From: a virus
Lineage: Duplodnaviria > Caudoviricetes
IMG/VR virus record: IMGVR_UViG_3300022654_000689
Direction: 5' to 3' (one strand)
DNA length: 64,000 bases
Shown here: positions 10,101-51,696 of the stretch, piece by piece
Position numbering within the stretch: position 1 is the stretch's first letter
How the letters are laid out: the number at the start of each line of letters is the position of its first letter
The notes under the pieces: generated by a model
Seen by the model: only the letters and a program-made list of their open reading frames with translations
Told to the model about the DNA's origin: nothing
Databases searched by the model: none
Made by a program: the position numbers and the translations under genes

Positions 10101-13100
10101 CAGCATTTTGTATTCGCCCCGTTACACTATACCATTGGTCTTTATTACAGAAGAATTTCTTTTTACCTTCAGCTTGGTCAGAGAATGATACCTGTATCCA
10201 TTGAGGTGATGCTGTTTTAAAGTTTAATGTATATTCTCCGTCTGGTACGTTAGAACGTATAACTGCAGAATTTTGCCATGTTCCATATTCATAAACGCTA
10301 TCAAGATAAACAAAACGTTCACTTACCCAACGTTTCATATGTTCAAGTCTCGATCCGTTAGACATGTATATCCATGCACTATTTTCTTCATTAACATATT
10401 TTATACGTTGATCTTCGTTATAGAATGTTTCTCCTATCTTATTAATTATTTCACTTTCAAAGAATTCCATTATTTTTTCATAAGAGAATATTCCATTAGA
10501 ACGTAAGTACATATATCTTTCAGCTATTTCATTTCCGAACATTTCTTTCAATTTAACCCATAAGTTAGATTGAGATGTATTGAAATCATCGAATTGCATA
10601 TCTATACCTGGTCCATATCTTAACTGACCGTCATTTGTAAGACCCAACATTGAGTCACACAGTTATGTTAATCTAGATATCTCTATCTAGCTCAGACTAT
10701 CGCACATCCCATATAGGGATTTGTCTCGTTTAGTCGTTCAGCGTGATTTAAGTTCATTAATAAATTGAATGACTAATTTTTCAATATTATCTTTTTCCCA
10801 ATAAGGTATTCTAAGTAAAGTTATATCGTTGTCTTTGCAATATTTATTTTTAATTTCGTCTCGTTGTTGTGTTATCTTTAATTGTTCTTTAGCATATTCT
10901 TCACCTTTACCTGCAAAATCTACAGGTTTGAAGTGTTGTTCTCCATCATATTCTATTGCAGCGTTTAATGTTTCAAGAAATACATCAAATCTAAAGTAAT
11001 TATTATCATCTACTTTTACAAAATATTCTTGTTTATGCGGAATGTTTTGTTCTACCAACACATCTGATAAAATTTTATTATTTTTACTATGAACACAACC
11101 ACATGAATATGTATAACCACCGGAAACCATACTTCCCACGATATTTTTAATAGTTCCACAATCACATTTACATTCGTATACATTTTTTCCATGTTCATTT
11201 AAACCAATTTTCTTTAATATTGTTAGTTTTCCAAATTTCATTCCAGTTATATCTTTTTCATGTTTTTCTCTTAACATTAATTTACGTTTACAACCGCAAT
11301 TTGTGCTTTTACCTTCAAAAATGTTATATGCTCTTACATTACTTATAGTTCCACAATCACATTTACACATAAAGTGTGAATCGTCAACAACTTTCAAAAT
11401 AGTCCAGCTTTCTATATGTTTACCAACATAATCTGCTAGATTATATTTAATTTTTTCACAACCACAAGATTTAATTTTATTTTCTTTTAGCTTTTGAGCT
11501 GGAACACTAGTTGTATTTCCGCACTCGCATTTGCAAATCCAATAAACTGGACTGCTAGAACGTAATCCTTTTCGTCTTTCTTCTCGTAATATTTTATTTT
11601 TTTCTTCATCTTTACTTAGAACTAATAATTTTCCAAATTTCATTCCTTTTTCTATCTTCATTTCGTAACCCCCTAATCTATGATATAATATTGTTAGGGT
11701 TTATTTATTAATTTTTAAATCTTCGCCCCTGTTGTCCATAAAGGAGTTCCAAGTCAATTAGAGACAATTTTTCCATATAATATTTCTATTATAGGCGACC
11801 ATTGTGTTAATCGTAAAACGATGGATACCAAATTGTATTACCTTCGGCGTTCTTACCAAATGTAGTAAGAACCATATTCTTACCAAAGTTATCTACAAGC
11901 CCGAAGCAATATACTATAAGATAATAGTCGATTAAATGTGTTACTGAAAAGTGTTCTTTTAATTCACTTCTAAATTCTTCAAGTGTACTATTTTTAACCC
12001 AAGATACTAAGTCTTGTAACTCTGAATGGTAACCTGCTTTAAGAACAGTGACAGCGTTATCTCCAGCACCTATAGTTTCACATACAACACTTTCATCCCC
12101 TGCATAGTGGAAACGGCTTTCAAATTCATTACGTATACTTTCCCAAGAATCATCAGCAAATGCCCCTGCTCCAGTTACCGAGTTAACTGCAATTTCATAA
12201 GACACTGCATTTTTTTCTCCTGTAAGACCCATATTATTATATGCATAACGGTCTATATTGAACATGTATATACCCATAGATTTTCCGTTAATTATTAATC
12301 TTACCGGGAAACCATCTATAGCAGATCTAGTAAGTGGATTCTTAATTTGTTGTGGGTACGGTGTATTAACTTTATTAAAGAACCAGTTAACATATCTTGC
12401 TGCTCCAACGTTGTTTGCTTGTGAAGAGTCCATAAAATTGGCCTTAAGCGTATATCGACTTTCTGGTATCCAATCATCTTTTGGAGCGTATTCCCAATTG
12501 TTACCTCCGTCTCTTAGTTTTATAGTGTAGTTTTTAACTGGGTACTCTAGTGATGAAGTACCTTGCCATGATACTTGACAACCTTCTTTACGGAAACGTT
12601 TACTAGGATCTAATGGGTCATCATAGTCTAGAGTAAGATTTTTAGCAACTTCTCCTGACATACCTTCCATTACACCTTCAAATTTTAAAGTAGGTATTGT
12701 GGAATCTCCGTAGTTTAGTTCTCTTTTTGCTAGTTGTTCATCTCTATCTTTTATGTCGGCTATAACATTTTGTAGAATTTCTTCATCAGTTAATGCGCAA
12801 TCATATATACGGAAATTTTTAATAGCACATTGTGCATAATGAGGTATCGGTCTTCCTTGTTCGTCAAGATTATCCTCAATCTCATCAAATGAAGCACCTA
12901 ATATAATTTTACCATCAAATGAGAATGGTTCTGTAGATGACATATACGCTGCTTTAGTTATAACACCATTTACGTACTGAATCATTATATTCTGGTCTCT
13001 GTCTATGACCCACGTCATACGTGTCCAAGTATCATCTTGGAATTGGCATTCAGTTATTTTGGAGTTTCTACTACGTAAACTACCTACTTGAGTATCTATA

Positions 13101-14563
13101 TACACCCCTTGAAATGGAGTATTTGCGTTTGCACACCATAGTACTTTTCCATTAACATCTCCAACATTTTTAACTTTATATAATATATCTATAGTCAATC
13201 CGTATCTTGCATTTTCAGCAAATGGAGCCCAGTCTATTTCTGCATATGTTTTTCCGTTAAACACTAATGCATTATCTATCCATCCATTTGTACCAAAGTT
13301 GAAGTTATGTAAAGTACATTTAACTCCATTACCACTTGTATCTTCCCATGTATTTCTAGTAATTGAGTCTTGTTGTTTTCCGTTCGCATCAAAGTTACAT
13401 ATTAAATCATGTGTTACTATTTCAAAAGGTATATAATCAACTGTGATTACTTCAACAGTCCAAGATAATTCATTTGATTTTATAGACCCATCTAGATTTG
13501 TTGAATATAATTTAAATGTATGTACACCTATTGATAGTTGGTCTCCAACGTTCCAATAGTTATATCCAGCAGATGATTTAGTCGTATCTACATGCACATC
13601 ATCAATAAATAAATAAGTTAAAAAATTTATTTCATCTTTCATACTGTTACGATATTCTATTTGTAAGTTTCTACCAACTTCTATTGAAGTTTGGGTAAAC
13701 TTACTACTTACATATAAACTACCACTATCCGCTAAAACTAAATTAAATACTAATTTATTAGAAGTTAAACGACCAGAAGTTGCGTATATTATAGCTTCAT
13801 GAACTCCCATAGTTTCTAAAAAACCTATGTCCCAAGTAGCTGATCCTTTTGGGTGGTCTTGTATTTCAGTCACTTGTCCATCTAATATTAAATATACTGT
13901 AATTGGATCATATGAAATTGTATCAATTTCATATTTTATTTTAACGAAGTCTTCTAAAGTTATATCATTAGAGTCATCAAATTTACTCGATACATGTAAA
14001 CCTCCAGCAACTATCTTAACTGTTATTGTACTAGTAAATTGACCTGCGATATCTACAACATAAATATCAACTCTATGCTCACCTTTTTCTATACCATTTA
14101 TTGTAAATTTATTATTACCGGGTGATATATTCTGTTCCTGAGTAACATAGTCTATACTTATGTATGCTGTACCAAATCCTTCATTTGGTGTTTTAAAAAA
14201 ATAATAAATATCTATTATATCATCTGTAGATACCATAATCTCTGATTCTGATAATAGTTCTATTGTAGGTTGTTCGACAGTAGGACCTCCACCACCTCCA
14301 CCGCCGCCTAAGCCACCATTTTCTTCAATATAATCAATTATATCATTTTTTATGACAGTTTTCAAAGTGTCAATTCTATTCTGCGTTTCTGCTACTTTAC
14401 TGCCTATTTCACTTAAACAGCCTTCGACATTTTTTGACTCATAAAGTCCTCCAACGTCTAATACTTTTTGTTGGCTGGCTAGATTGCTTGCTTTAACGAC
14501 CCATGCACCACGTTCTTCTTTTCCTTCAACAATGGCATTCGGATCCCAGATTTTTATTGACAT
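7108..14563 (-). CDS. Large tail/adhesin-like protein (about 2101 aa): Ig-like, LamG-like, CotH-like kinase, LRR and BspA-like repeats; exons 14563..11810 and 10659..7108
   Basis: QGTSSLEYPVKNY, YTLKANFMDSSQANN, DNFGKNM, spliced FYD|CDSMLG; C-terminal LRR and FxNCxxLxG repeats. Confidence 0.8.
10660..11809 (-). mobile_element. Group I intron (1150 nt) carrying an endonuclease in the P6 region
   Basis: P1 cgat/gtcg; AACGACTA...GATAGTCT; ends taacataactG; twin of intron 51025..51210. Confidence 0.92.
10738..11661 (-). CDS. Intron-encoded endonuclease: CxCxCG zinc-ribbon repeats plus Vsr/DUF559-like nuclease domain
   Basis: Three CKCECG-type repeats; FRFDVF...IEYDGEQHF...RD..KN..LLRIPY. Confidence 0.8.
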   Translation of the reverse strand: MKIEKGMKFGKLLVLSKDEEKNKILREERRKGLRSSSPVYWICKCECGNTTSVPAQKLKENKIKSCGCEKIKYNLADYVGKHIESWTILKVVDDSHFMCKCDCGTISNVRAYNIFEGKSTNCGCKRKLMLREKHEKDITGMKFGKLTILKKIGLNEHGKNVYECKCDCGTIKNIVGSMVSGGYTYSCGCVHSKNNKILSDVLVEQNIPHKQEYFVKVDDNNYFRFDVFLETLNAAIEYDGEQHFKPVDFAGKGEEYAKEQLKITQQRDEIKNKYCKDNDITLLRIPYWEKDNIEKLVIQFINELKSR

Positions 14564-14645
14564 ATTTTATATTTCAACCCCTTTCGTGGAAAGTGATTAT
14601 TTCCATATATGTATGTTTCAATATAAAAAACAACGAAAGCTAATA

Positions 14646-15176
14646 TTAGCTTTCGTTGTTTATATGCTTAGAATAATCTATATATATTTTTAAAATATAA
14701 TCCATTAATGCTTCTAAAGGTATATATCCATCATAAAAATTATCAGGATTGAGAGGTATGCCTTTGTAGTTATACATTGAATAGCTTCGTTTCATTAAAT
14801 ATTCTCTAATAACATAGTAATCAGAAGTACTAATAAATCTTAAAATATGTCCAATATACGAAAGTTCTTCTCCATATAAAAGCCAGGATTCTTTAAATTC
14901 TCTATAAAGATCTTTAGCAATACCTCTAAATGATGATCTTTCAGGAAGCTCATTGTAACAGTATTTATCTCTTATTATATCAGCATCCCTATCTAACTCT
15001 CTATATAGTTTTACAGCCTCTACTCGATTATTATCATCAATAAATTTTTTAAGTTTTATTAATTTAGAACTGTCTATTTCATCTATTAAGAATAAATTAT
15101 ATCCTCTATTTTTAGTCAAATAATCAAATAACATTTCTGCAGATTCAAATTGTGCTTCTATACTTATACCTCTCAT
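14646..15176 (-). CDS. Hypothetical protein
   Basis: 176 aa ORF with AAGGA RBS. Confidence 0.6.
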   Translation of the reverse strand: MRGISIEAQFESAEMLFDYLTKNRGYNLFLIDEIDSSKLIKLKKFIDDNNRVEAVKLYRELDRDADIIRDKYCYNELPERSSFRGIAKDLYREFKESWLLYGEELSYIGHILRFISTSDYYVIREYLMKRSYSMYNYKGIPLNPDNFYDGYIPLEALMDYILKIYIDYSKHINNES

Positions 15177-15221
15177 TTCATCATCATCCTTTAAACAATA
15201 ATGATAATTTGTTTTTATAAA

Positions 15222-18200
15222 TTAATCCAATCTAGGTTTTGGATCTAATATTTCTTGCCCTTTAGATCTCCATGGTATTACTATTTCATCTACTAATTCT
15301 ACTTGCTGTGTTCCATAAGGCGCAACTACGTCGTTTTCATTAGCATCTTTTACAACTATTCCTTTTAATTGATAAGTTTTACAACTAAATTGATCATTGC
15401 TTATTTCTATCATCGCATAAGTTGGAGCTTGTGGATGATCACCAACGTATCCATACCACCAAGGTCTAGTTGCATTATTATTTACTTCTGGGTTATTAGT
15501 AACACCTTGTATTATTTCTTTACCAGATAATTTAAATCCAGCAGCTTGATTCATTATATAAGTTGTACCGTTATTCCAATCTGGTGCATGAGATATAGTA
15601 CCATGCCCTAAAGCAGTTTCTTCTTCAGCAGTAGCAACTCCTGTTGCATCGAAACCATCTTTTTTAGGATATCCATCATAACCAGAATATATAGGTATTG
15701 ATCTAGAATAAGTGTGGTTATGTCCACAAAGTACTACATGAACTCTATGTTTTTCAAATACCGGTATAAATCTTTGTAACCATAGCGGTCTTATTATAGT
15801 GAATGGAGATAAATGCATATATACAACTGTCCATTTAGTTTTATCATTATCTTCGTCTTTAGTTAGATCTGCATCTAACCATTCACATTCTTTTTGTATC
15901 CATCCATCTACATTAGTTGGATCACCTGTAGCTAATTCCATCATTCTCTTATCTTTATTGTTAGAGTTTAAGCTTACAAAATGAACTGGTCCAAGATCCC
16001 AAGAATAAGCAGAAATATATGGAGATTTATCTTCGCCTTCTGGTAAGAAATGGTCTTCAGCAGTCATATAGTAAGTAAATGGTTTTGAATCTGTTTTGTC
16101 AGCAAGATCGTTGTTGCCGCAAGTTATCATGTGACAACAGTTTCTTGTAGATTCAAGTGAATATTGGAAGTAACCTCTCCATTCAAATGATCTATTAGCA
16201 TTTTGAGAAATATCGTGTATTGTCGATTACACCGCTAAGTAATCACTGTATATTTCTATACAGACTAGACTATATCATGATCTTATTAAAGATCTTCTCC
16301 ACTGTCCTTCTGCGGATTTTGAAGGAACTTAGTCGTTGAACGTCTCTCTTTTAATGTTTTATCTAAAATATTTGAAATATTATCATAATCGTAATAAGGA
16401 ATTCTTAATAGGAATATATTAGAGTCTTCACAAAACTTAGTTTTTGCTTTGTCTCGTTCTTTAATTTCATTAAATTCTTCATCAGTCATTCCAAATTTTT
16501 TCTGAAAATGTTGTTCCCCATCAAACTCTATTAATAGATTTAATGATTCTACAAAAAAATCAAATGGCAAAGTATACTTATATTTACAATTTTCAAATCT
16601 TTTTTGTCTTTCGTATTGTAAATTCGATTTATCAAGAATTTCGCATATTTTCTTTTCACCTTTTGATTCTTTTTCGCAATTACAACCTCTTCCTTTTTGG
16701 AAATTTATATAAGTTGAGCTGTATGGATTTCCATGAGGACATATCATATCCAAATGATCACTGTTTCTCACATACGTTTGTGATAGAAGTTTATAACCTC
16801 TTTTTTCTATAACTGTTTTAACGTCATTATAGTCAAGCCTTTGGCTAATATTATGAATCTTATTATCACATAATTTACATTTACTTCCAGCTTTTATACT
16901 GTCAGGTGTCATTTTTATTTCATGACCCTTGTCGCAAATTATATCAAGTTTCTTTTTAGAACCTAACCATTTATTAGATACTAATTCATAATTATTGCTA
17001 TCTAAGATTTTTTTAACTTCATTTAATCTTTCTTCATCTTTACAATGAGGACATCTTCTATTGTTACGTATATTAGAAATAGTAGTATTCCATGTATGAC
17101 CTTTATCACAAATTATATCAAGTTTAGTGTTTTGATCAATATAATCATCTTCATTTCTAAAGCTATATCCTATCTTTTTCAAATATTCTTTATTACTATT
17201 AATCGCATTTATTCTTCTAGATTCTAAATTATTTATTTTTCTACCCATTCTCAACACCTCTAATTACTTGTTGAGCTATTTTTAACATTAAAAAAGATTT
17301 CGCTGCTGATTTGCCATTGCACTAGTACTTAGGTTTTAACCTTATACCATCTAACCTATTTTTTCTGCTTTCGCCGCATTCGCATTTAGGATTTAACCTT
17401 GTGCTGTAGCTAGGTTAGCTTTAGGCTCTTCCAGCAATTCAAAGAATTTGCTATAATTATTTCTAATTATAGGGAGAAATTTCTCCAGTATTTAGATGCC
17501 AATCCCATCCTTCTGGTTCTTGTTCTACTATATTTTGATAGTTAACTTTCCATGCTTGATATTGTTCTGTAGTCCATCCTTGTTGGTCTGAAGTCCATAA
17601 TATTCTCATAACGTCATCAGCGCCATAAGTTTTTACTTTAAATGTAGCTATATCTGACCACATACCTTCAGTACCACATTGATATTCGTATTCACCTGGT
17701 TCTAAGTCTCTTATTATAGCTCTATGTATAGTAGCCTCTGTATCAAAATGAGATACTATTTCTCTTTGAGTTTCTACAGTAACCCATTTATTAGTATTAA
17801 CTAATCTATATCTTACCCAACCTTCGTCCATAACTGGTGTTTGATAAGTAAATGTACGAGTTTTTTCTCCATCTTTACCATAACATATATTAACTAAGTT
17901 AGGAACATTTTCTTTTAATTTAAGTTTATCAAAGTATATATCCCATTTTCCATCTTTTAAACTTCTTGGTCTGTAAGTTTCAACATCACAAGTTCTAAAG
18001 TCTAATGCTCTAGCTGCAGTTTGATTGTTTTCAGGTTGATCTTTAAAAGCAAAATCAGCAGCACTTTGACAGAAATCAAGTCTACGTATACCTATATCTT
18101 TACTCATTAATTGACCATATCTATATTCATATGCTTGAACTTTTTTGTCAGTAGTAAGTCCTCCTGCAGCTAGCATATCTATATAACCAATAGCTTTATT

Positions 18201-18878
18201 ATTGTTACCATCGTGATTCCAAGGGTTACCTCCTTGAGAATCAGTTGGTGGTTTACCTATTGATAAATATGCTGAAAATCCATCTTCTGGAAGGTTTACA
18301 TCCCACTCCATATCATAATTATTTACTTTTAATCTAGTACCTAATAATACTGGATCTGATACTTGTCTACATCTAACAAGAAATGAATGTTGATATGGTA
18401 TTATTCCTTCAAGAGCAAGACTTGTCCATCCACCTGTTGCGCCTTTAACACTTAAATATAGTCCTTTAAGATTAAGATCTAAACCATTAGGCTGGTTGTT
18501 ATAAAGTTCTATATAATGATGTGATGCAGGTGTATTATTTGCATTTTTATCTCCAGCCCCATACATTGAATTTATAATTAAACCGTTATATGTACCACTA
18601 GCTGATGGATCTGGTTCTGGTGCTTCAAATGCTTCAATAGGATATATAACAAATTCTCCATCGCCATTCATTCTAACTCTAAATTTACTTCCATCAGCTG
18701 AAGATAACTCAACATAGTCAGCTCCACCTTTATTTATAGCACCTCTAAGAACATCTACTGTAATAGATCTATTTGATAATGTATCTCCTTCTTTAAGAAC
18801 TATAGGTAATATATAATCATCTTTAACATTATCACTATTTGTAATCGGTGTCATTTCCGAAATTTTTTTATTAGCCAT
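15222..18878 (-). CDS. Lamin-tail-like/FN3/purple-acid-phosphatase-type metallophosphoesterase, about 795 aa; exons 18878..17483 and 16213..15222
   Basis: WTSDQQ, spliced NTGDISQN, TCGNND, YMH, LCGHNHTYSRS; YIELYN; GEYEYQCG FN3; N-terminal MANKKISEM. Confidence 0.85.
16214..17482 (-). mobile_element. Group I intron (about 1269 nt) with endonuclease; atypical 5' splice site
   Basis: AATTGCTGGAA...AATCAGCAG, TTCAACGACTA...GATATAGTCT; terminal G16214. Confidence 0.85.
16286..17257 (-). CDS. Intron-encoded endonuclease: CxxGH...CxxC repeats plus Vsr/DUF559-like nuclease domain
   Basis: ICDKGH x2, ICPHG; LPFDFF...IEFDGEQHF; 3' end runs through the ribozyme core. Confidence 0.8.
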   Translation of the reverse strand: MLRMGRKINNLESRRINAINSNKEYLKKIGYSFRNEDDYIDQNTKLDIICDKGHTWNTTISNIRNNRRCPHCKDEERLNEVKKILDSNNYELVSNKWLGSKKKLDIICDKGHEIKMTPDSIKAGSKCKLCDNKIHNISQRLDYNDVKTVIEKRGYKLLSQTYVRNSDHLDMICPHGNPYSSTYINFQKGRGCNCEKESKGEKKICEILDKSNLQYERQKRFENCKYKYTLPFDFFVESLNLLIEFDGEQHFQKKFGMTDEEFNEIKERDKAKTKFCEDSNIFLLRIPYYDYDNISNILDKTLKERRSTTKFLQNPQKDSGEDL

Positions 18879-18893
18879 GTTAGTATTCCCTCC

Positions 18894-19973
18894 TTAAATT
18901 TCTTGAATTATGTATTCACCAAATTCTGTTATTAACACGTCTCCAGTTTCCCCTATAACTTTGTTAGTTGTATTTTGCGAAGATTCAGAATTTTCATTAT
19001 CATTTCCAGATGAAATTTCATTGATTATATAATCTCCGTTTTCTGTAACGAAGAAATCTCCGTTTTCAAGAAGTATTACATCTTTCTTAGGCACAGAAGG
19101 TTCAATATATTCTATTACTTCATCGACTATATAATCTCCATCTTCTGTAATGAAGAAATCTCCGTTTTCAAGAATTAATTTTATTACATTTTCAACAGTT
19201 GGTTTATCTTCATCATCAGGCCATGTTATATTTCCATTTTTAATAATAGCTTTTATATTATCCACGTCTTTTCTAAGACTTTCGATAGATTCTAATATAG
19301 CTTTAAGCATTCCATTGTTAGTTTCATCATTTATAATATCTTCATTTATTTCATCATCAGATATATCTATCCAAACCATCGTTTTATCTTCAGGAGGTAC
19401 AGAACCTACGTGAATATTAGTACCAAATGTATTAATATTTGCCCATTCATCCCCTAAAAATATATATGTATTTCTAGTATTTTTGACAAACGCCATACTT
19501 CCGGTTCCAACGGCGTTCCCATATTTACCTAATATTTGTTCTACTTCAATATCATTATCAACTCTGAATACACGGTGGTATGTGTCGTCTAATTCTTCTT
19601 TATCAACTTTTTCATCTATAAGTTTCTTAATATCATTTACTTCGTCATCTAATTCTTCTTTATCAACTTTATTATTCCAATTTTCTAAATCTTTTATAGT
19701 TATTTCTTTAAGTGCTTCGTGGTTTTCTAAATTTGTAGAAAAATCAGGTGATGCTGTAAAGGGTTTCCAATTATTATTACCAATATATACATAATAAACT
19801 TTTTTAGATGAAACATAACAAAGCATACCAATTTGCTTTTTTTCATCGACTATATTATTCATTTCATTCACTGTTTCTGTATAATGAATACCGCCCTGAA
19901 CGTCATTAGATAGAACTATAGGAAAATTACCATTATTTTTAGGTATAATAGTGCTTATTACTTCAATTGCCAT
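18894..19973 (-). CDS. Tail-appendage adaptor-like protein
   Basis: IHVGSVPPEDKTMVWID motif and three C-terminal xxENGDxxxTExGxYI repeats. Confidence 0.55.
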   Translation of the reverse strand: MAIEVISTIIPKNNGNFPIVLSNDVQGGIHYTETVNEMNNIVDEKKQIGMLCYVSSKKVYYVYIGNNNWKPFTASPDFSTNLENHEALKEITIKDLENWNNKVDKEELDDEVNDIKKLIDEKVDKEELDDTYHRVFRVDNDIEVEQILGKYGNAVGTGSMAFVKNTRNTYIFLGDEWANINTFGTNIHVGSVPPEDKTMVWIDISDDEINEDIINDETNNGMLKAILESIESLRKDVDNIKAIIKNGNITWPDDEDKPTVENVIKLILENGDFFITEDGDYIVDEVIEYIEPSVPKKDVILLENGDFFVTENGDYIINEISSGNDNENSESSQNTTNKVIGETGDVLITEFGEYIIQEI

Positions 19974-19986
19974 TCATTTCATCCTC

Positions 19987-20901: not shown

Positions 20902-20989
20902 ATCGTATAACCCCCCTTTCTATTAATAAAATTTTGTTCCGAGCTATTAATTTAGATGATACGATTAGCTAATCGTATCATCTTTAGTT

Positions 20990-21538: not shown

Positions 21539-21539
21539 A

Positions 21540-23048: not shown

Positions 23049-23157
23049 AATAACTACCTCCCTATTGTAGTATATTCAGTTGTAATATTCAGTTTTGTTG
23101 TGTTGTATTATATTGTCAAACCATCTTAATTATAATATACGTTTGTATAAAATGTTA

Positions 23158-23169: not shown

Positions 23170-23203
23170 TTATGTTACGATAAAAAAATTAAGGAGGGCT
23201 ATT

Positions 23204-24914
<1,711 letters not shown>

Positions 24915-38681: not shown

Positions 38682-38719
38682 AATTGGAATACATTAGATA
38701 ATGGGAGGATAAGAACTGA

Positions 38720-39229: not shown

Positions 39230-39263
39230 AAGAATAACCCCATATAGAGGTTATTCTTTTTTT
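39227..39263. terminator. Bidirectional terminator
   Basis: aaaagaataacc...ggttattctttt between convergent genes. Confidence 0.7.
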
Positions 39264-40111: not shown

Positions 40112-40133
40112 CCATTATCATTCCTTTCTTCTA

Positions 40134-43100: not shown

Positions 43101-43742
43101 ATATTCGTCATATTGTATAACTTCGAATGTATATACCCTGAAGTCATACATATCATCAAAACTATTATTTAAATTTATACGGAAACCTAAATTGTTATAA
43201 GCTTCACCTCTACCAATAGGATATATACAGAATAATAAATTATCATTATATCCGTCTATTGTAGTGTCAGTACGTCTTATATTTATTTGGTTGTCTAAAG
43301 ATTCTTTAGATACTGCAGTTAGTTCAGTACAAGCAGTACATGTTCTTAAATGAACATCGTCTTTATATATAATTTCATCGTCTATTGTTTTAACCGGTTT
43401 CTCACCAATATTTACTTTAGTTTGTATATTGAAGAAACCATGAGCATAAGTAGCATCATCTGGAAGGACTCTAAGAACGTATACGTTAGCTCCTGCTCCT
43501 AAAAGATTTATTATATTGTGTCCAGCTTGGCCAAATTTTCGCATGTTAGGCTCACCATACTCTTTTATAAATTGAGCCCCGCTTGACATAATTTGAACTT
43601 TGTTATCTAGGCCTTTTTCTGATACAATAGCATAGAAAAAGCTTACGTCTGAAGCATCCCCATTAGTAAATAATATATTAGAAGTTATTGTGGAAGCGAC
43701 GTGGGGATGTAGCCATTCTAAACCAGTTTCACTTATTGACAT
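40134..43742 (-). CDS. Contractile tail sheath protein with large central insertion
   Basis: FIKEYGEP, YVLRVLP, GRGEAYN; C-terminal AGNARG...QVNYV...INNMLV..DIKR...FEFNE. Confidence 0.82.
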   Translation of the reverse strand: MSISETGLEWLHPHVASTITSNILFTNGDASDVSFFYAIVSEKGLDNKVQIMSSGAQFIKEYGEPNMRKFGQAGHNIINLLGAGANVYVLRVLPDDATYAHGFFNIQTKVNIGEKPVKTIDDEIIYKDDVHLRTCTACTELTAVSKESLDNQINIRRTDTTIDGYNDNLLFCIYPIGRGEAYNNLGFRINLNNSFDDMYDFRVYTFEVIQYDEYENASTIEGPYYVSLYPDAMSYTGDSMFIKDVLETYSQVVRCIYNEDVFYKLATLINPNVHPQVIDIVSGQSRMVAGQPETYYDDDTLRYEDVHMSIMKYDINGEVIVNNGYAALNIPAADDERVLTTISIDNMLRQSLYNTSEIMLEKMKVVLGEILQKRYASQLDRLIQVGIVLGEGDNAVLYDIIGGTYKAREDNLDAAMHNTIRTLFLNGILPSQLVEGEVSYYSRSVYERDEKGYFLEHGTEALYERDLTLSLCIDDLIDVMEDIIPYISIMERNAGYTTVGASLKTFVNNWRSIMNSTESFVYTLVSIQTAMLALQEELIYAETITDANEKLAAVSSIFSTFSVDLVPNLTIGVRGLDPEFNHYVTNAVKGKELFTNVGAAGRNMPNAILVVDKVIDLENSTDEQLVYYFIDKNGNKLLDADGKVLVQLGDRFILVDDPRIEGLGAVVGDYVVPGKYVEVMSNKVDPDILIVVENDRYEDGSLIADNLICINDPMIFDKGFEVGDFVKLMTHEVECDSVYPFDEAHDEIYKELDRLGKEINSLGMTYLTDQYIIDQLNGFEDEDTGDSFVGLIPQLFELMNKSMNLIAPLSALYAFSKHYSIVSKFALLSAFGAGCRTTIVKGVYKCRKAYLDNYHMPESATTGTMKLVLENANDAIAEATAALENLKTYVLTNTLEGQGTISRLNKGSDGCISYNNSLLSATVRQANIDSLLVKGYKGLIDENILNRRLMPFKYLLDANYNVSVKHAIVDLASNIRKDLFAWLDTEICANPSQALAWRANKFPITTNMAAIYAQDGIIFDEFQGKDVRVTMSYQLAKMIPAHAITTGLQYPMAGNARGGVSLPQISYIPNELQKEEMYNRQVNYVETNGRFNKFGTQLTTTTKNDALVNINNMLVALDIKRNVEVMAEDVIFEFNESETINKFQQSLNSFLAKYKNNKSCEEISARAYSSDYDKLQKILRVAISVSFYGIIERVIININVVK

Positions 43743-43787
43743 GTTTGTTAACACTCCTTTACTTCGAGATTTTGTTAAGTCATTTCG

Positions 43788-44534
43788 CTAATATTTTGTT
43801 ATCTTCTCAATAGGTGAGACTATTTCTTTTTCTCCATTTATATTTTTACGTATAGATGAAAGTATAGAATCATCCATATTTTCAAAAGATAATGCCGCGA
43901 ATGTACTATTTATTGGTGGTAAATTTTTAACATTTGTCATTTTGTAATCTATATCTTTAGTTCCTTTGAAATTTTCACCTATTATTTTTCTAAAAGGAAC
44001 GGATACATCATCTTTACTTCTGCATAATTCAGCAACTGTCATTTCAAGAATGCACCCAGGATTACCTATGTTTACCTTATTTAATATAAGATTGTCAAAA
44101 TATAATTTGATTATATCAGAATATGGTATTGTTGAAGGTAACTTATTACTGTGTAATGCAAATATGAAGTTTTTAGAATTAGCACCGCTTTGTTCTTTTT
44201 TGACGCTATCTAAAAACATCATACCATTTTGTAATATAAACACATAGTTGGGTTCAATTTCTTCATTAACTGTAACATTTTCGTTTCTATAATCGTCAAA
44301 CTCAAATATTACATTCATTGGCAGTTTAAATGTGTGTTTTTCAATTTTTCCTTTTTCATCTAACACTTTAAACTCAAATATTCCTAATGTGCTTATTTTA
44401 TTACCTATAAATTTAGCAACATTTTTATCAAAGTAATATTTAGGTATGTAGATTTCCATTAAATAACCGTCAAAATAAATAGCATCATCTACTTTTTTTA
44501 ACCATGAATATTTCAAATCACTAAACACCTCCAA
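43788..44534 (-). CDS. RNA polymerase beta'-like C-terminal subunit (probable)
   Basis: ILEMTVAELCR and STFAALSFENM resemble bacterial beta' HIEVIVRQM and SFISAASFQET. Confidence 0.65.
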   Translation of the reverse strand: MEVFSDLKYSWLKKVDDAIYFDGYLMEIYIPKYYFDKNVAKFIGNKISTLGIFEFKVLDEKGKIEKHTFKLPMNVIFEFDDYRNENVTVNEEIEPNYVFILQNGMMFLDSVKKEQSGANSKNFIFALHSNKLPSTIPYSDIIKLYFDNLILNKVNIGNPGCILEMTVAELCRSKDDVSVPFRKIIGENFKGTKDIDYKMTNVKNLPPINSTFAALSFENMDDSILSSIRKNINGEKEIVSPIEKITKY

Positions 44535-44608
44535 TATATAATCTTATGTTTCTTGATATGGTATTGTTTTATATAAACAAATTAAATTAATCAAGGATAG
44601 ATTTAAAT

Positions 44609-45406
44609 CTATCCTTGATTAAAATATTTAATTATTTTATAAAGATTTTCTATTATATAACATCTGAAATCGTTATGCTCTTTAACTAAACCTAAAATAT
44701 TAATTAAAGTAAAATAAACAGAAACTCCTATGGTCTCCATTTTATTGTCTACTATGTATTTATAAAAATTTGTTAAAAATAATTTATTCTCTTTTTCATT
44801 ATTTATATTTACATTATTTAAAATTATTAATAAATCGTTGATAGGGGGAAATGAATATTTAGTATTATCTTTTAATTTTTTATTAGCTTCAGTTTTATAT
44901 TTTTTATATAATTTACTATCATATTTACGAATTTTTCCGTTCATACTACGTAAATATGTAAATGTTATAGCCGACTCCATTGCTTCTATTTTTCGTTCCA
45001 TTTGTTTAACTTCTTTAAAGCTATAATTACCTGAGTCTATCATTTCTTTTAATTTTTTTATATACACTGGCATGTTATTAGTCTCTGCAGTATTATTCAT
45101 AGTTTGTATATCTTTTTTTAAATTTTGAAGCTTCTTAACAAAAATTTCATTAGCTACTTTATTTCCTTGGCTGTCTGCCAGAGGCACCAACTCTTTATAA
45201 GTATCCCTAATACTTTTTTCGTCATCTATTAATTCTAGTATACCGTATTGTCTTATTTCGCCAGTTTCAGTATTATATAATATATCACCAATTTTACAAT
45301 TTTTATATTCTTCAACTTCTAAAAATTCAGTAACTTCATAAATTGTAGGTACTAACTCATGTAATGTTTCCTCATGTATACTCTCGATCATAATAAATAC
45401 CTCCAT
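44609..45406 (-). CDS. Hypothetical protein
   Basis: About 260 aa, GGAGG RBS. Confidence 0.65.
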   Translation of the reverse strand: MEVFIMIESIHEETLHELVPTIYEVTEFLEVEEYKNCKIGDILYNTETGEIRQYGILELIDDEKSIRDTYKELVPLADSQGNKVANEIFVKKLQNLKKDIQTMNNTAETNNMPVYIKKLKEMIDSGNYSFKEVKQMERKIEAMESAITFTYLRSMNGKIRKYDSKLYKKYKTEANKKLKDNTKYSFPPINDLLIILNNVNINNEKENKLFLTNFYKYIVDNKMETIGVSVYFTLINILGLVKEHNDFRCYIIENLYKIIKYFNQG

Positions 45407-45440
45407 GATTTGTATATTGAATCAATTTTATATAGAATTT

Positions 45441-45587
45441 TTATTCATTATAAATTTCTATCTTTTCCCATTTACCACTTTCATTCATTATAAATGTTCC
45501 TTTATTTTTAACCTGTACCAACACTCCATCAACAGGTACAATCTCATTTAACTGATCCATATTTTCTACTAAAATTACTCTCATCAT
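45441..45587 (-). CDS. Small hypothetical protein (48 aa, below ORF-track cutoff)
   Basis: AGGAGG RBS, MMRVILVENM...WEKIEIYNE. Confidence 0.55.
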   Translation of the reverse strand: MMRVILVENMDQLNEIVPVDGVLVQVKNKGTFIMNESGKWEKIEIYNE

Positions 45588-45597
45588 ACTTAACCTC

Positions 45598-46374
45598 CTA
45601 TTTTTTATATAGTTCTATTAATTTATTAGTTATATCTTGTCTTAATGCATAGTTATTATCTAATATTTCTTTAAGGAACTTAGGTTCGCCCGGTGTTATC
45701 CCTAAATCTACATATGTATCTAATTCATCGAATATATTAAGTACCATCATGTTTGTAAATTCTTCTGGATCTCTCATCGTACTAGTCTTTACAAAATCAT
45801 ACATGTTATCTATATTTATCTTATTTATTATATCACTTATATGATATAATATTGTAGCTGTACTTTCATTATATTTACTTACTAATGATTTGTATATATT
45901 ATTCTTATTATTTATTTTATCTGAATATTCATACAAAATATTTTCAATTGAACCTAGTATCGTATTTACTGCATAATTTACTATATTATCGTATATGTCA
46001 ATTACCAAAAAATTATATAATTCAGTCACAACATGATGTTGTTCGTCTATCATTAAATTATCTCTAAAGTCTATTGTAAATTGATATTTTAATTGTAATT
46101 CGTCCAGTATTGTACTATAAAAATTATTTTTTATAGTATTTATCATTCTTTGCAATTTTTTATCATTATAATATAATTCATTTATACTATTTAACCTCAT
46201 TTGAAAACTTTCTACAAAATTATTATTATTTTTCTCAATATTTTTATTTAAATTTCTTATTTGTTCAACAACATTGTCTTGTAATATATCATCTGATATA
46301 CTTTCTGTTACGTCCACTCTTATTCTATCACTCATTACATCATTATTTCTTATCGTATTAAATATGTTGCCCAA
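45598..46374 (-). CDS. Hypothetical protein, late
   Basis: AAGGGGG RBS, TTG start, late promoter 46404..46415. Confidence 0.65.
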   Translation of the reverse strand: MGNIFNTIRNNDVMSDRIRVDVTESISDDILQDNVVEQIRNLNKNIEKNNNNFVESFQMRLNSINELYYNDKKLQRMINTIKNNFYSTILDELQLKYQFTIDFRDNLMIDEQHHVVTELYNFLVIDIYDNIVNYAVNTILGSIENILYEYSDKINNKNNIYKSLVSKYNESTATILYHISDIINKINIDNMYDFVKTSTMRDPEEFTNMMVLNIFDELDTYVDLGITPGEPKFLKEILDNNYALRQDITNKLIELYKK

Positions 46375-46439
46375 AACGCGATACCCCCTTAATCATTTTT
46401 AAATATTTTTATGTTAATTTAAGTTTTTAAATTTTAAAT

Positions 46440-48714
46440 CTATTTATTCATACCTAAGATCATTTTTAAAGTAGATTTACTAACTTTCTTCTTAGAATTT
46501 TCACCTTTGCGTGTCATCATTGAATTAGGTATAGGATTTAAATCTACGTATTCATTATCTTTGTTTTCTCTTTCAATTTGTTTATATTGAGATATCATGT
46601 GATGAGCTGCTCCGAAATTAGAGTTTTTAGATGTATATACATTTTTATTAATATTATTATATTTTCTTATACGGTTTGCATCTGTATTTTTATTAGTTTC
46701 ACTTCTAGAAGCAAATGCGTCATCTGAAGTTACTTTTACAAATCTATTAACATTTTCGCCATAGAATATAGCATGTAAACCTATTAGGTAGGACATGAGT
46801 TGGTCATCGTGGCATCCAGGTCTATGATCTATACGTTTATGGTCTCTAACTAGTGTTTTAATTTCATTGAATATATCTTCGCTAATTATCCAGTTTGGAG
46901 AGTTATTAACTACATCAAACAGAATGTCTTCAGTCATTATAGTTCTATTATCGTTATTAGTAGCTATACCGTAAACTCTAGATTCCTTTTTATAAGTCAT
47001 TTTACTTCCAAATCCCGATTTACGAGGATCGTCTATAGTTTTTTCAGCTTTCTTAGTTTTAACTTCATAATACACTTGTCTTGCAACTGAAGTTCTAAGA
47101 AGTAATGATATAAATGGAATACCTACAGAATTACGTTCTGGAACTATAACTGCATTAGGTAAATATTTACTTACGAACTCTTCAACTAATACAACTAAAT
47201 CAGGTATTTCTATGCTATTATGTCTAAATGTTATAACCGGCTTACATGTGAGTGGATCTATGACAGTGATTGCTGAGTAGTCAAGGGATACCCCTGTAGC
47301 TATATCTATTGCAACTACCCATGATTTATTATGAATGTTTTTAAGATCTGTTAATACATTGAATACATATTTACCGAATAATACTATTTGATCTTTAGGT
47401 TTTACTATATGCTTGGATATCTCTTCAAGTTGTTCTTCTGAGAAAGGAGAATCATTTGAAGCATACATCCATTGTATATCAAGCTCTCTTTTTATTTTAA
47501 ACAAATCTTGGTTAAGAGATTTACATTGATCTTCATACCATGCTTGATCTCTTCCTAATTCAGTATATGAGTATTGTACATGAACGAATTTATTGTTAGA
47601 TTCATATACTATACGCTTAACTTGTTCTATTGGCATATCATACCATTGTTCGTTAAATTTAACTGCATTATTTATCATTTTAAAGCAATATGCACCTGCT
47701 GGATCATCTAGTGTAGAAGGAGTAGTAGTTAATAATGTACCATATGGAACACCATTTACTTTTGCTCTTTCTGCAGCCTTTGCTTGGGCTGGCGCTGATG
47801 CTGTGAATATTATGTCATTATGCTTAAGGAAACTAAACTCGTCACTGTATTGTTATTCTTACAATTTCTTGTAAGCACAGACTATATCTTCACCATCTCT
47901 GGTGCTTCCCACTTCCACTTAGTTAAATAAGTGTACTCTAATCCCTTATTAACGGTTTCGATAGTCGTTGAACCTTCCTAATATTAAGCTTGGCTGCTGA
48001 TTGTCCCAGTGGGAGTTTCCAGCAATTCAAGAAGTTTTCATTTGCATATCACTATGCAACGGGACTCTATTGAATCCATATTAATGGAGTAGTTAATCCC
48101 CTTCCTGCTTTATCTGCAGATACAGGGTCATTAGCTGATTTCAGCAAGCTTATTGTATTTTGGTTTCTTTTACATCTTATATATTGTATATTGTCAGTAT
48201 CAGTCTTACTATCCATATGAGCTTTAAGATAACTTGGTAAGGCTTCTACTGTTTCTTTAAAACGTTTTAAGTTTAACTCACTATCTTGTACTGATTTATT
48301 ACCAAATATAATTTGTGAGTTTGATGTATTAAAATTATATACCCATGTATAAAAACAAATAGCTCCTATAGTCTTACCATGTTGTCTAGGGAGCAGTTCT
48401 ACTACGTTTATATTATTTAGCATACAAAAGTTTTGTGCTAAGTTTGCTATATGAAGTCCATATTTAGCAAATCCTCCTGGTTCTATAATATGAACTACTT
48501 CTCTTAGGTAGTACCAGAAATTTTTTTGCACTTCTGCTAATATTCTAAGTTTCATTTCATCTGAAAGATTAGGATCATACGGATCAACACCGGATAGTCC
48601 CGGATCATACAAAATTAAAAAAAACTTATTATTTTTTACTCCTTTATCTTTCAGCAATTTCCACATCTCAATGAAAGACTGATTAGATGTATTTACATCG
48701 TAGATGGGTTTCAT
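46440..48714 (-). CDS. terL: Terminase large subunit; exons 48714..48074 and 47844..46440, about 681 aa
   Basis: PRQHGKT Walker A, GRG, spliced LIWIDEF Walker B, LTTTP, AIDIATG..DYS, ERNSVG, HDDQLMS. Confidence 0.93.
47845..48073 (-). mobile_element. Group I intron, ORF-less, 229 nt, in Walker B of terminase
   Basis: P1 ggat/gtcc; AATTGCTGGAAACTCC...AATCAGCAG; AACGACTA...GATATAGTCT; terminal G47845. Confidence 0.92.
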
Positions 48715-48811
48715 GCTATAATACCTCCTTGTTAATCATAATAATTAAATGTTTAAATTAAAACAATAAAGATATTGGAAAATGATCATTATGATCATTT
48801 TCCAAATTTTA

Positions 48812-50140
48812 TTAATCAACATACATAAACATTTGTAAACTAGATAACATAAATTGTCCCCAAACTTTTACAGGAACACCATTAAGTTCAGCGTCTACAC
48901 CGTTACAACCGAAATTAAGATCTCCTGATAGTAAAGATTCATCAAATGGAACTTTTCCGCCTATTCCGTTGTCTCTAGTTACATTTAATCCACAATCAGC
49001 AGGAGCTATTACAAAATAAGTAGCTCCTTCAGGACAAGCATCTATTGATATTGATGTTTTACCCATAGGGCCTATTGCAGCTTTATTTATTACAGTAGTA
49101 GATTCTTCAAGTTCTCTTACTGATATATTTTTAGGGTCTAATGTAAGTCCACGTCCCATATAATATCCATAAATTATATTATCTTTAAATCCTATGTCAT
49201 CATAGTCAATGCCTTCAGCTGGTACAAATATTTTTGTTACTCCATCTATTGTTAATCTTAAATTTCCATTAACTATCTTCATGTCAAAAGGTAATACATC
49301 TTTTTTAACCATTGCATAATCATCTAACACATCTTCTTTTATAACTGAATTTTCTATCTTTTCAGCTATTTCTTTTTCTAAATCCGCAGCAGGTATACCT
49401 TTCGCTGGTTTTTCGTATTTAGCATTCCATGTGTCTCTTTCTTTAGGAAGAATGTGACAATCATTAGCAACATGTGGTTGCCACTCTTCTTTTATAAATA
49501 AATTATAAACATTTTTTTCTAAATAAGGTTTAAGGTCTATAACAGGTAAAAAAGCATCTTTTATAAGTCCATTTTTAATATCAAATAATTGATCTTGTTT
49601 TACCATATTATTTAATTTGTTTTTTAAATTTGCTGATAGATGAAGTTCATCTAAACCTTCAGATGGCATATCAAATTTGTTATTCCATTTAGCTCTTTCA
49701 TTATTATTTATATGAATAATTTGATTAGCTACATGTGCATCATCATCTTTTTTATTATTATTTAATGTGTCTGCTAATTTTTTTAAAGTATTTAAAGAGT
49801 TTGGAGCGCCATCTAATAATTCATTTATTCTGTTATCAACGTATTCAGCTGTTATGAAACCTGATACATCAATATTACCACCATTTCCTGCTTCTAATTT
49901 AGCTTCTGCTATTTTATTAACTACAAATTCTTCGCTAGCTAACCCTTCAATTGAAGGTATTTCAGGTTTACCAATTAAGTCATTATATTTTTTGCTAAAT
50001 AATTCATCTTTATTAGCTTTTAAATTTACTGTATATTTTAAAGATTCTACAGCTGTATCAAGCGTATCAATAGCTTCAAGCGCTTCATTAATTTCTTCAC
50101 CACTGAAATTCAATTTAAACCATTTTTCTGAATTACCCAT
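48812..50140 (-). CDS. Tail-fibre-like structural protein
   Basis: YNDLIGKPEIPSIEGLASEEFV, DGAPNSLNTLKKLA, repeated HI...ERxxWN; late promoter 50177..50188. Confidence 0.6.
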   Translation of the reverse strand: MGNSEKWFKLNFSGEEINEALEAIDTLDTAVESLKYTVNLKANKDELFSKKYNDLIGKPEIPSIEGLASEEFVVNKIAEAKLEAGNGGNIDVSGFITAEYVDNRINELLDGAPNSLNTLKKLADTLNNNKKDDDAHVANQIIHINNNERAKWNNKFDMPSEGLDELHLSANLKNKLNNMVKQDQLFDIKNGLIKDAFLPVIDLKPYLEKNVYNLFIKEEWQPHVANDCHILPKERDTWNAKYEKPAKGIPAADLEKEIAEKIENSVIKEDVLDDYAMVKKDVLPFDMKIVNGNLRLTIDGVTKIFVPAEGIDYDDIGFKDNIIYGYYMGRGLTLDPKNISVRELEESTTVINKAAIGPMGKTSISIDACPEGATYFVIAPADCGLNVTRDNGIGGKVPFDESLLSGDLNFGCNGVDAELNGVPVKVWGQFMLSSLQMFMYVD

Positions 50141-50213
50141 TTATCTTTTTTCCTCCTTTATTTAAGTAATTAACAATATTATTTTGTTTGTTGTCAAGTA
50201 TTTGATGTACCTA

Positions 50214-50648
50214 TTAAACTGCAAAATAACATATAAAAAATAATATAAACAAAGCTGCAAATATTAATGTTGCTGTAAACGAATTTGTTGAACTTTCATT
50301 ATTATTTTGTTCTTCAGATTCTTCTGTACTCGCGTCTTGTTCTTCAGATTCTTCTGTACTCGTGTCTTGTTCTTTAGATTCTTCTGTATTTGCTACTTTA
50401 CTTTCTCTTTCAGCACCTTCTTTAAGCATAATTTCTATTTCATTATCATTATAACCTTCGTCTTGTAGTACGCTAATTAGATCTTCTTCTTTAACTGGTC
50501 CATCGTTAAATATTTCTTCTATTTCATAGTAGTCCCAAAATCCTGATTTGTTAGTATAAGTATCTCCGTTTGCTGCAAAAGAAATTATAGGTAGTGATAT
50601 AATTCCTATAACTAATAATGCTATTGTAATAATTTTCCATTTTTTCAT
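50214..50648 (-). CDS. Secreted, membrane-anchored protein with 27-nt tandem repeats
   Basis: Signal peptide ending SFA, TEESxEQ x3, C-terminal TM helix. Confidence 0.7.
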   Translation of the reverse strand: MKKWKIITIALLVIGIISLPIISFAANGDTYTNKSGFWDYYEIEEIFNDGPVKEEDLISVLQDEGYNDNEIEIMLKEGAERESKVANTEESKEQDTSTEESEEQDASTEESEEQNNNESSTNSFTATLIFAALFILFFICYFAV

Positions 50649-50697
50649 AATTTTCCTCCCCATTATACAGAGAGAATGATCTAAATGATCATTCTCT

Positions 50698-51696
50698 TTA
50701 AAATTTGATATTTCTTAAGAAATTATCTAATTCTCTTTCCATAGTACTTTCTAATTTTACTTTTAATATATCTCCATTTTCTCTTAAATCAACAGTTTTA
50801 TTATATGGATCTATTACTGCATTTCTTGTAGACATTTTCATGTATTCAGACATTTCTTTTACATTATTTGATTGTTGAGTTATATATTTAGCAACTTCAT
50901 TAAATTTAACATCTAATATTGTAGATTCAGTTAATACTTGTTGTGCTGTCATATCTTTATATCCAGCTTGTTCTTTTAATATATTTGTCATATATGCATT
51001 ATTATGTGATGGAAATAATACCCACAGTTTTGTTAATCTAGACATCTCTGCCTAGCTCAGACTATCGCACATCCCATTTTAGGGATTCATCTCATTTAGT
51101 CGTTCAGCGTGGATTTTCATCCTTCGCCCTTGTCGTCCATAAAGGAGGTCCAAGTCAATTAGAGACAATTTTTCCATATAATATTTCTATTATAGGCGAC
51201 CATGGTGTTAATCGTAAGTTATAATGTATAATTTTCCATCTATTCTATCATATGCTCCTTCTTTTCTAGCAACTCCACCTAAACCTCTCATAGAGAATGC
51301 CATTTGCATACCTTGTCTACATAATCCCCTAAAATCATCTCCTGCGTGGGTTCTAGCCGATTCAACTACACCTTTAAGTAAATTCCCTTCAAAGTGCATT
51401 TCAGTTATTATATGAGATATTCTAGTTTGATCTATGTAAGTTTGTCTCTTAATATCTTCGCTTAGGGGATGTCCACATTCTCCAACAAGAGTTTTCATTT
51501 TAAGTTGTTCTTGTATTCTAGGTGCTTGTATTGCTCCTAATAAAGATGCTTTACTGTATATACGACCATTTCTATTTGGAGCTTCTGCTTCTTGTAATAT
51601 AGTTTCTATTATAGTAACTTCTGCAGTATCTCTTAATATTTTTGGTTTTGCAGTGAAAGCCGATTCAGATATTAATATACCATCAAATTTTTCCAT
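50698..51696 (-). CDS. Prohead protease (T4 gp21-like); exons 51696..51211 and 51024..50698, about 270 aa
   Basis: LQEAEAPNRNGRIY, GECGHP, SHII, FSMRGLG, spliced TYD|WVLFPSH. Confidence 0.92.
51025..51210 (-). mobile_element. Group I intron, ORF-less, 186 nt, in prohead protease
   Basis: P1 cgat/gtcg; AACGACTA...GATAGTCT; terminal G51025; near-identical to the core of 10660..11809. Confidence 0.92.

Follow-up and report, generated by a model that had tools for sequence, protein, structure and literature searches.

In the 64,000-nt stretch of DNA analysed here (the window; IMG/VR record IMGVR_UViG_3300022654_000689, Caudoviricetes), two group I introns of the same lineage interrupt two unrelated genes lying 40 kb apart, one for a CotH/leucine-rich repeat (LRR) protein and the other for a prohead protease, in both cases at TTACGAT|TG and in phase 0 of the codon. 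The best explanation of their sequences is that they are recent paralogs in unrelated genes of one jumbo phage, and ectopic insertion of paralogous introns belonging to one widespread phage intron family is the overall reading to which we assign a probability of about 0.75. An earlier, sequence-only reading of the window had given both introns with boundaries that proved exact; its observation of one intron in two genes is confirmed and its account of ectopic movement is partly supported. The features concerned are as follows.

10660..11809 (11809 to 10660), minus strand: large group I intron, 1150 nt, inside the CotH/LRR gene; 5' splice site after T11810, terminal G at 10660
51025..51210 (51210 to 51025), minus strand: small group I intron without an open reading frame (ORF), 186 nt, inside the prohead protease gene; P1, P2, P3-P9 and terminal G
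11810..14563, minus strand: exon 1 of the CotH/LRR gene, 918 codons, ending in WYPSFYD; its Pfam CotH match covers positions 3-197 of 322 and is broken by the intron
7108..10659, minus strand: exon 2 of the CotH/LRR gene, 1183 codons, starting with CDSMLGLTNDG; LRR/DUF285
51211..51696, minus strand: exon 1 of the prohead protease gene (Peptidase_S77), ending in IITYD
50698..51024, minus strand: exon 2 of the prohead protease gene, starting with WVLFPSHNNAY
11796..11801, minus strand: internal guide sequence UGGUCG of the large intron, the same sequence as in the small intron
51197..51202, minus strand: internal guide sequence UGGUCG, nt 9-14 of the small intron, with predicted pairing to exon CGAU and intron UA
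10738..11661, minus strand: intron-encoded nuclease, 307 aa, with three Zn-ribbon repeats and a C-terminal Vsr-like domain bearing the motif IEYDGEQH

Each intron starts with TAAC directly after exon TTACGAT and ends with AACTG directly before exon TG. Removal of the small intron restores the frame TYD|WVL, in line with intronless colinear homologs in IMG/VR (loci L021 and L022), protein P0025 and many database proteins. The spliced CotH/LRR gene encodes 2,101 aa with the frame restored at WYPSFYD|CDSMLGL, and Bacillus phage G gp353 runs uninterrupted across FYD|CDS, with 61% identity before the junction and 42% after it. Since both frames are restored and both products are colinear with intronless homologs, both splice junctions are taken to be real. 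The exon 1 ORF of the CotH/LRR gene also matches Laminin_G_3 (Pfam), and a search of IMG/VR for related loci with the CotH exon found nothing.

The two ribozymes are far more similar to each other than members of their family usually are. By blastn, 85/89 nt are identical in the 5' halves (95.5%) and 82/92 nt in the 3' halves (89%), an overall ribozyme identity of approximately 92%; for comparison, pairwise identities within the family (2016 pairs of cores) have a median of 70% and a 99th percentile of 89%. The near-identity of the core halves, first noticed from the sequence, is thus borne out, and the pair lies far above the background, the best outside matches in a family of more than 60 members being about 76-81%. 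Searches of IMG/VR, JGI metagenomes and GTDB genomes yielded nothing above about 81% identity to either copy; the top outside match to the small intron reaches approximately 76-78%, and exact 19-mer scans of the same three collections recovered no close relative (at most 76% overall). P2, L8/P8 and P9, which vary across the family, are nearly unchanged between the two copies. In a 42-row maximum-likelihood tree of the family they are sisters (support 100/96), with an ORF-less intron, L116, branching next (98/90), and a scan of the window with R1, a covariance model of the family core, detected no third copy of the lineage. The term "recent" used in the sequence-only reading is relative: the copies have accumulated 14 differences and each is fixed and invariant across independent samples. 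The main difference is a length gap of 964 nt, against the roughly 960 nt first estimated, caused by an insert in the P6a region of the large intron that contains the ORF for the 307-aa protein. The 8 nt GATTAACA occur twice, once at the 5' junction and once close to the 3' end; a DNA-level footprint was considered as the source of this repeat and rejected, because it is the family consensus, in which introns start with UAAC... and end with ...UAACAAAAUG.

Assignment to group I rests on a conserved structure. The P7-P3'-P8-P7' pattern occurs at at least 120 loci in IMG/VR, and more than 60 copies have the same core blocks; a first pattern scan with GGAMCTCCTWTATGGAC had returned mostly chance matches in coding sequence, the only introns being L012 and a second site in L004. 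When P3, P4, P5, P6, P8 and the P3/P7 pseudoknot were mapped onto an alignment of 41 non-redundant family members, the structure paired 95.9% of cells, compared with 39-52% when the partners were slid. Changes on both sides were seen in 229 cells, against 66.7 in shuffles, and affected 19 pairs of the family core; none of 500 shuffles reached the observed covariation. P4 and P7 never vary across the family and are thus uninformative in this respect. This pattern supports a group I core with a P3/P7 pseudoknot, backed by covariation. Both window introns have U before the 5' splice site, the guide UGGUCG, a P2 of 9 bp closed by a GAAA loop, helices P3 to P9 and G as the last base. Most relatives measure about 220-275 nt; both window introns lack the P9.1/P9.2 hairpins, which explains the 186-nt size of the small one. 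With R1, the score is 95.6 bits for the small intron, and 35 and 27 bits for the halves of the large intron.

The divergence between the copies respects this fold. Of their 14 differences outside the cassette, seven fall in helices and all of these keep pairing: U-A to U-G in P4; G-U to G-C and U-G to U-A in P3; in P9, G-U to A-U and the replacement of C-G by U-A, a double change that counts as two positions; and, as the seventh, one side of a P6a G-C pair that is absent from the large copy. A further pair of positions, C63/G77 in one copy and A63/A77 in the other, flanks P5. Since every helix substitution preserves pairing, both introns look like working self-splicing ribozymes, and the substitutions are best explained if both copies have been kept under selection for ribozyme folding since their split. 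The predicted splicing also receives indirect support from the essential host gene, the structure-preserving substitutions and fixation in many samples.

Population data show that both introns are fixed in a widely sampled jumbo phage. The exact 307-aa nuclease protein occurs in 47 blocks of public assemblies, lying between two CotH ORFs in every contig read, and the exon 2 protease ORF with its start inside the small intron occurs in 41 blocks. In L157-L160, which are independent samples with contigs of up to 330 kb, both introns are 100% identical to those of the window; the small intron is likewise unchanged in the independent samples L159 and L160. Because they recur identically in independent metagenome samples, neither intron is an assembly artefact. 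The 14 differences are stable in all samples read, and no ongoing homogenisation between the two introns is visible in them.

The P6 region tells a history of its own. In the small intron, P6 reads GCGAAG-GAT-G-AAAATC-CACGC, with P6a formed by GGAT-G-AAAATCC, and matches the ORF-less relative L116 (GGATTTTTAAAAATCC), including the G-C pair absent from the large copy. In the large intron, P6 reads GCGAAG-ATTTAAAAATTAATAAAT, followed by the cassette and then by AAAT-CACGC, and it matches the whole P6a of L148 (ATTTATTAATAAAAT), an ORF-less intron in a related CotH gene. At the comparable differing positions near the cassette (63, 77, 81, 99 and 117) the large copy agrees with L148 at 5/5 and the small copy with L116 at 4/5. 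Because the small intron's P6a resembles L116 and that of the large one resembles L148, the small intron is not a deletion product of the large one, and the proposal that it is a mini copy of the endonuclease-bearing intron is not supported. The conflict in the P6 signal indicates that recombination between introns has occurred. On the sequence comparison, the nuclease module was probably gained by the CotH copy and not lost by the protease copy, and the CotH copy probably acquired or retained the L148-type P6a together with the nuclease module by recombination with another CotH-site intron.

The protein encoded in the cassette, whose stop codon lies inside the P6'/J6-7 core, is a predicted Vsr/EDxHD-type homing endonuclease. 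The PHROG families that it matches (374/559/9084/7140) have the labels "intron encoded nuclease" or "HNH endonuclease"; its single Pfam match, to DUF2726, is weak, and sequence searches of the PDB returned no match. A structure model built from 29 homologs (mean pLDDT 93) matched Vsr (1cw0_A, 1vsr; TM 0.57-0.63) and the catalytic domain of I-Bth0305I (3r3p_A; TM 0.74 by target length) in Foldseek, each with a probability of 1.00 and with E-values of 0.005-0.05 that are weak because the query is multi-domain; these matches argue for a Vsr/EDxHD-type fold instead of HNH. E237, G240 and H243, which fall in IEYDGEQH of the window protein, are invariant or nearly so across the 29 homologs. The nuclease family is very large: at E<=0.001 it comprises 49,517 representative clusters. 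Just before the start codon of the nuclease (window 11700-11670, minus strand), CCCTAA...TTAGGG can fold so as to hide the ribosome-binding site AGGGGG, and AACA-N6-TA lies inside this segment.

The distribution of introns among relatives bears on the direction of movement. In a contig from ENA sample ERZ27303898 (L144; 87-93% DNA identity), window position 51211 is joined directly to 51024, so that the protease site is precisely empty. This allele reads ACTTATGAT|TGGGTA (TTATGAT|TGG) and is one synonymous base, at -4, away from the filled allele; that T to C change is the sole exon difference in the 24 nt upstream of the site and yields the base found in the CotH flank. With regard to co-conversion, it is also one of about 10 scattered differences per 100 nt between the two phages. 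None of the protease homologs found (0/33) has an intron at YD|W: all are either continuous across this point or interrupted 6 nt downstream, after YDWV, where distant proteases (P0007, P0009, P0010, P0012, P0015, P0022 and P0023; loci L145 and L146) have an ORF-bearing intron of another branch. L144 itself has a different intron of approximately 360 nt, of the second branch, about 250 nt upstream in the protease gene (L144:596-957), before MHFEGN (around window 51456-51473), so that three intron sites (YD|W, YDWV| and the upstream L144 site) are known in this gene across relatives.

At the CotH locus, by comparison, L148 (73% aa identity) has two introns. One is the ORF-less member of the same family, placed exactly at FYD| and forming a P1 of 7 bp (CUACGAU/GUCGUAG); the other follows GLVD. 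Introns of the same family lie at other nearby CotH positions in L155 and L156. Among L147, L148, L155 and L156, the region GLVDNFGKNM...WYPSFYDxDSxLGLTNDG is interrupted at at least five positions. With the protease site empty elsewhere and FYD| occupied in L148, the protease copy is the odd one out and the CotH site has the longer record. Because L144 is empty, 0/33 homologs have an intron there and FYD| is filled in L148, an ectopic copy from CotH to protease is the best reading, and among the relatives compared at both sites the protease copy looks like the ectopic one.

The flanks themselves are far too short for ordinary homing, as the sequence-only reading had implied. In the blastn alignment of the two loci, similarity ends after 7 nt of the 5' exon and 2 nt of the 3' exon, so that the exons have only TTACGAT|TG in common (7+2 nt); 10/11 positions match if TGnG is included, and 11/14 central positions. 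We infer a P1 in which CGAU|UA pairs with UGGUCG, and the exon 3' bases UG could wobble-pair with U9 and G10 as a possible P10. The window contains 199 copies of CGAT and 13 of TTACGAT, and since about 6.5% of its CGAT sites are preceded by TTA, the sharing of these three bases is only mildly surprising. Guide pairing is insufficient for the whole 9-nt match because P1 comprises CGAU and two intron bases only, and the P1 match is a survival filter as much as a targeting signal, because no intron could splice after insertion unless it paired with its exon. The flank match between the two exons is partly expected. The idea that the site was chosen by guide pairing holds in so far as CGAU can pair with the guide, and falls short in that P1 does not account for the full 9 nt. 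A C/A difference at intron nt 7 was considered as an adaptation of P10 and dropped, because several pairing registers exist that favour different copies.

Three further observations concern this type of target. The single other TTACGATTG of the window (4067-4075, plus strand) lies inside ORF 3874..4626 and is unoccupied. At L083:3066-3800, two introns 530 nt apart have 88.5% core identity and exactly the 7-bp P1 target AGACGCT| in common, with different 3' exons; their host may be a capsid gene, and the pair is a second candidate for a guide-sequence-matched duplication. L154:3919-4065 (minus strand; contig labelled as a Deltaproteobacteria metagenome-assembled genome) and L151 represent a 76% relative with the same P1/P2 layout and GUCG guide, located at GGGTTCGAT|TCCCACCGCCTCCACC, a site resembling the part of a tmRNA gene that encodes the T-loop and acceptor end.

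Taken together, one copy, derived from the other or from an immediate common ancestor, would have been inserted into a non-homologous gene whose site already resembled that of the donor (TTAYGAT|TG), the likelier direction being from CotH FYD| to prohead protease YD|W. The CotH copy would have its nuclease module in common with another CotH-site intron lineage, and the moving element would for this reason probably have been ORF-less. The data show the identity of the ribozymes, the junctions, the empty site in a relative, divergence that preserves structure, and fixation in the phage population; direction and route we infer from these comparisons. Several observations weigh against the proposed history. 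Rfam 15 (RF00028), searched with the whole window and with both loci, gives no match to either intron, whether the cut-off is the gathering score or E<=10. The other group I introns of the window, which has seven or more, likewise went undetected at every threshold tried, and we read the miss as a limit of the model. The closest relative, L147, has a GLVD intron with a GIY-YIG ORF on a contig that ends before the FYD site. L148 is not adjacent to the pair in the short core tree and sits on a long branch, and no outgroup is close enough to settle the direction: the core-tree backbone is weak and pairwise core identities are indecisive. The empty protease site of L144 could be a loss instead of a gain, and the recombination between introns might also have homogenised older paralogs.

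Granted an ectopic event, an RNA-level mechanism (P1/P10-guided reverse splicing, cDNA synthesis and recombination) would be the leading candidate, short of even odds, DNA-level break repair would also deserve serious consideration, and other processes would account for the remaining, smaller share. At the RNA level, free ORF-less intron RNA might have reverse-spliced into protease mRNA at the guide-pairing site (CGAU, with UG for P10), been reverse-transcribed and then recombined into the genome, a tentative proposal. It accommodates the presence of the P1 partner CGAU in the common flank, the wobble pairing of UG with U9 and G10, and a small copy that has no trace of a nuclease ORF and a P6a like that of the ORF-less L116; the L083 pair, with exactly a 7-bp P1 target in common and nothing 3' of the site, and the 76% relative whose identical GUCG guide lies behind CGAU of a tmRNA-like gene would fit it as well. 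However, it requires a reverse transcriptase, of which none was found here, no search aimed at one having been made; no system has provided direct experimental evidence for the pathway (PMC3984707), the three extra bases TTA (about 6.5% of window CGAT sites) are unexplained by P1 as drawn, and the P1 match, being needed for splicing after any insertion, does not discriminate between routes. The alternative at the DNA level, equally tentative and only slightly less likely, is that the look-alike protease site was cut by a homing nuclease, which may have been the EDxHD-type enzyme encoded in the intron or one of several more such nucleases of this phage, and was repaired from the CotH intron through microhomologies of 7 nt and 2-4 nt, so that the intron was copied precisely. 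In favour of such a route, I-Bth0305I, whose fold the nuclease resembles, cuts beside its own intron site and tolerates most single changes (PMC3239194), and TTACGAT|TGnG matches at 10/11 positions, although the central match is only 11/14. For phage T4, a review cites illegitimate break repair as an accepted proposal of how introns transpose (PMC3984707), but with so little homology on either side such repair should occur only very rarely. The -4 base, which equals the donor flank as expected from co-conversion, is just one of the roughly 10 differences per 100 nt mentioned above, and a nuclease-bearing template would imply a later loss of the ORF that restored the G-C pair absent from the large copy, which is unparsimonious.

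Two other histories need no ectopic move between these loci in this genome. Each intron may have arrived by ordinary homing from phages in which it occupies its regular site, the donors belonging to one sub-lineage. Intron content is indeed highly mosaic among relatives (three sites in the protease gene, at least five in the CotH region) and close relatives are thinly sampled; yet no other protease homolog has a YD|W intron, no intron found outside the pair is more than about 81% identical to either copy, and the ectopic step would merely be shifted to another genome, so that we hold this account to be improbable. Old, independently acquired paralogs may instead have been made alike by gene conversion between the loci. 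That the P6 of the large copy groups with L148 and its remainder with the small copy does indicate inter-intron recombination, and conversion could start from core blocks that are conserved over 12-18 nt; against this, the protease site is empty in a relative of about 90% DNA identity, the 14 differences are stable in all samples read and show no ongoing homogenisation, and two separate tracts would be needed around the 960-nt heterology, which makes conversion very improbable. Returning to ectopic insertion, a more elaborate version that we consider similarly improbable to separate homing is that an ORF-less 186-nt ribozyme reached a new protein gene by RNA pairing alone (reverse splicing) and became fixed in this essential phage gene, and that its sister later gained a tolerant Vsr-type nuclease that also cuts the second site. 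If true, one nuclease would drive the homing of two introns in two unrelated genes, a natural pair of autonomous and non-autonomous elements.

The window has further group I introns. An ORF-less second-branch intron of 194 nt (2263-2456, plus strand; P1 GUGCGU/GGCGCAC; R1 30.9 bits) interrupts a family B DNA polymerase gene shortly before SLYPSII. Another of about 205 nt (approximately 24527-24731, plus strand; second branch) is located at NSLG|GDYDGDTVSL, a motif that we take to resemble the metal-binding motif of the beta' subunit of multisubunit RNA polymerase. A third second-branch intron, with approximate bounds (around 47846-48075, minus strand), lies between ORFs 48067..48714 and 46440..47678 in a host gene without a Pfam match. 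On the same strand, an intron at approximately 16240-17470 splits a purple-acid-phosphatase/metallophosphoesterase gene (parts 17463..18878 and 15222..16130) and contains a 323-aa nuclease ORF (16286..17257) with a DUF4379 Zn finger and a C-terminus like that of the CotH-intron nuclease. The 3' part of yet another intron occupies 63215-64000 (minus strand) and extends past the window end; its nuclease-like ORF (63281..63859; DUF5889) enters the ribozyme core. There are thus at least seven introns in 64 kb, with several intron sites per gene among relatives, and because introns are this dense and Rfam is blind to them, gene callers will break up the genes of jumbo phages such as this one.

It has long been a question how group I introns spread to new sites, and the window pair offers a clean natural case of copying to a foreign site, a process rarely caught in phage protein genes. 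It provides a donor and a recipient site in one genome, an empty recipient allele in a near relative, a 186-nt ribozyme that is easy to synthesise and a candidate nuclease. The finding that the small copy does not simply have the nuclease-bearing one as its "parent" bears on models of how introns and homing nucleases become associated. Similar introns at two sites of one prophage gene (reported in 2008) and older rDNA cases were already known; what is new is the level of identity, including the guide sequence, the two unrelated protein-gene hosts, the empty allele in a near relative and the chimeric history of the nuclease-bearing copy.

The closest precedent is TMP-IVS1/TMP-IVS2 of Bacillus cereus-group prophages, similar introns that are 80% identical at two sites of one gene (Tourasse & Kolsto 2008, PMC2504315). 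Both systems involve homologous phage IA-type introns at two sites, with a core more conserved than the periphery, which was read there as adaptation to new homing sites (PMC2504315). The prophage introns, however, share a gene and have a different P1/guide sequence for each target, whereas the window pair is approximately 92% identical, including P1, P2, P8 and P9, has the same guide, and occupies unrelated genes 40 kb apart with a 9-nt common target and a precisely empty allele. The pair also resembles nuclear rDNA group I introns, in which related introns occupy heterologous sites alike in a few guide-pairing bases (Bhattacharya et al. 2005, PMC1299323; Roman & Woodson; Birgisdottir & Johansen); in contrast to these eukaryotic rRNA-gene introns, it resides in phage protein genes, in codon phase 0, with a nuclease-bearing sister in the same genome. 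According to a review, the circumstantial case for ectopic movement is strongest for the rDNA introns, a pathway of reverse splicing and subsequent reverse transcription has no direct support, and the alternative is illegitimate break repair after relaxed nuclease cleavage (PMC3984707). I-Bth0305I, which cuts next to its own intron insertion site and recognises a 14-bp core in which most single substitutions are tolerated (Taylor et al. 2011, PMC3239194), is like the window protein an intron-encoded phage nuclease with a C-terminal Vsr-like fold (PDB 3R3P; TM 0.74). The two differ in that their identity is 19% and that the window nuclease has three N-terminal Zn-ribbon repeats and the motif E-x-D-G-x-x-H.

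In IStrons such as CdISt1, a transposon of the IS605 family is joined to a group I intron, with TnpA/TnpB genes 3' of the ribozyme and a transposon target. Like them, the window introns are near-identical group I copies at unrelated sites after a short conserved target. An IStron/IS605 reading, prompted by the TTAC-like target, was nevertheless rejected, since there is no transposase, the sole ORF is a Vsr-like nuclease in P6 and the small copy is ORF-less. Trans-acting nucleases offer a precedent: Zeng, Bonocora and Shub reportedly described, in 2009, a free-standing endonuclease at the cyanophage psbA intron site. Trans homing of a nuclease-less intron is documented for T4 mobE with I-TevIII (PMC2790892). 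In both cases a nuclease encoded elsewhere mobilises an intron that lacks a working one, as the idea of an autonomous/non-autonomous pair needs; these systems operate at one locus, whereas the window nuclease would have to act on a second, unrelated gene.

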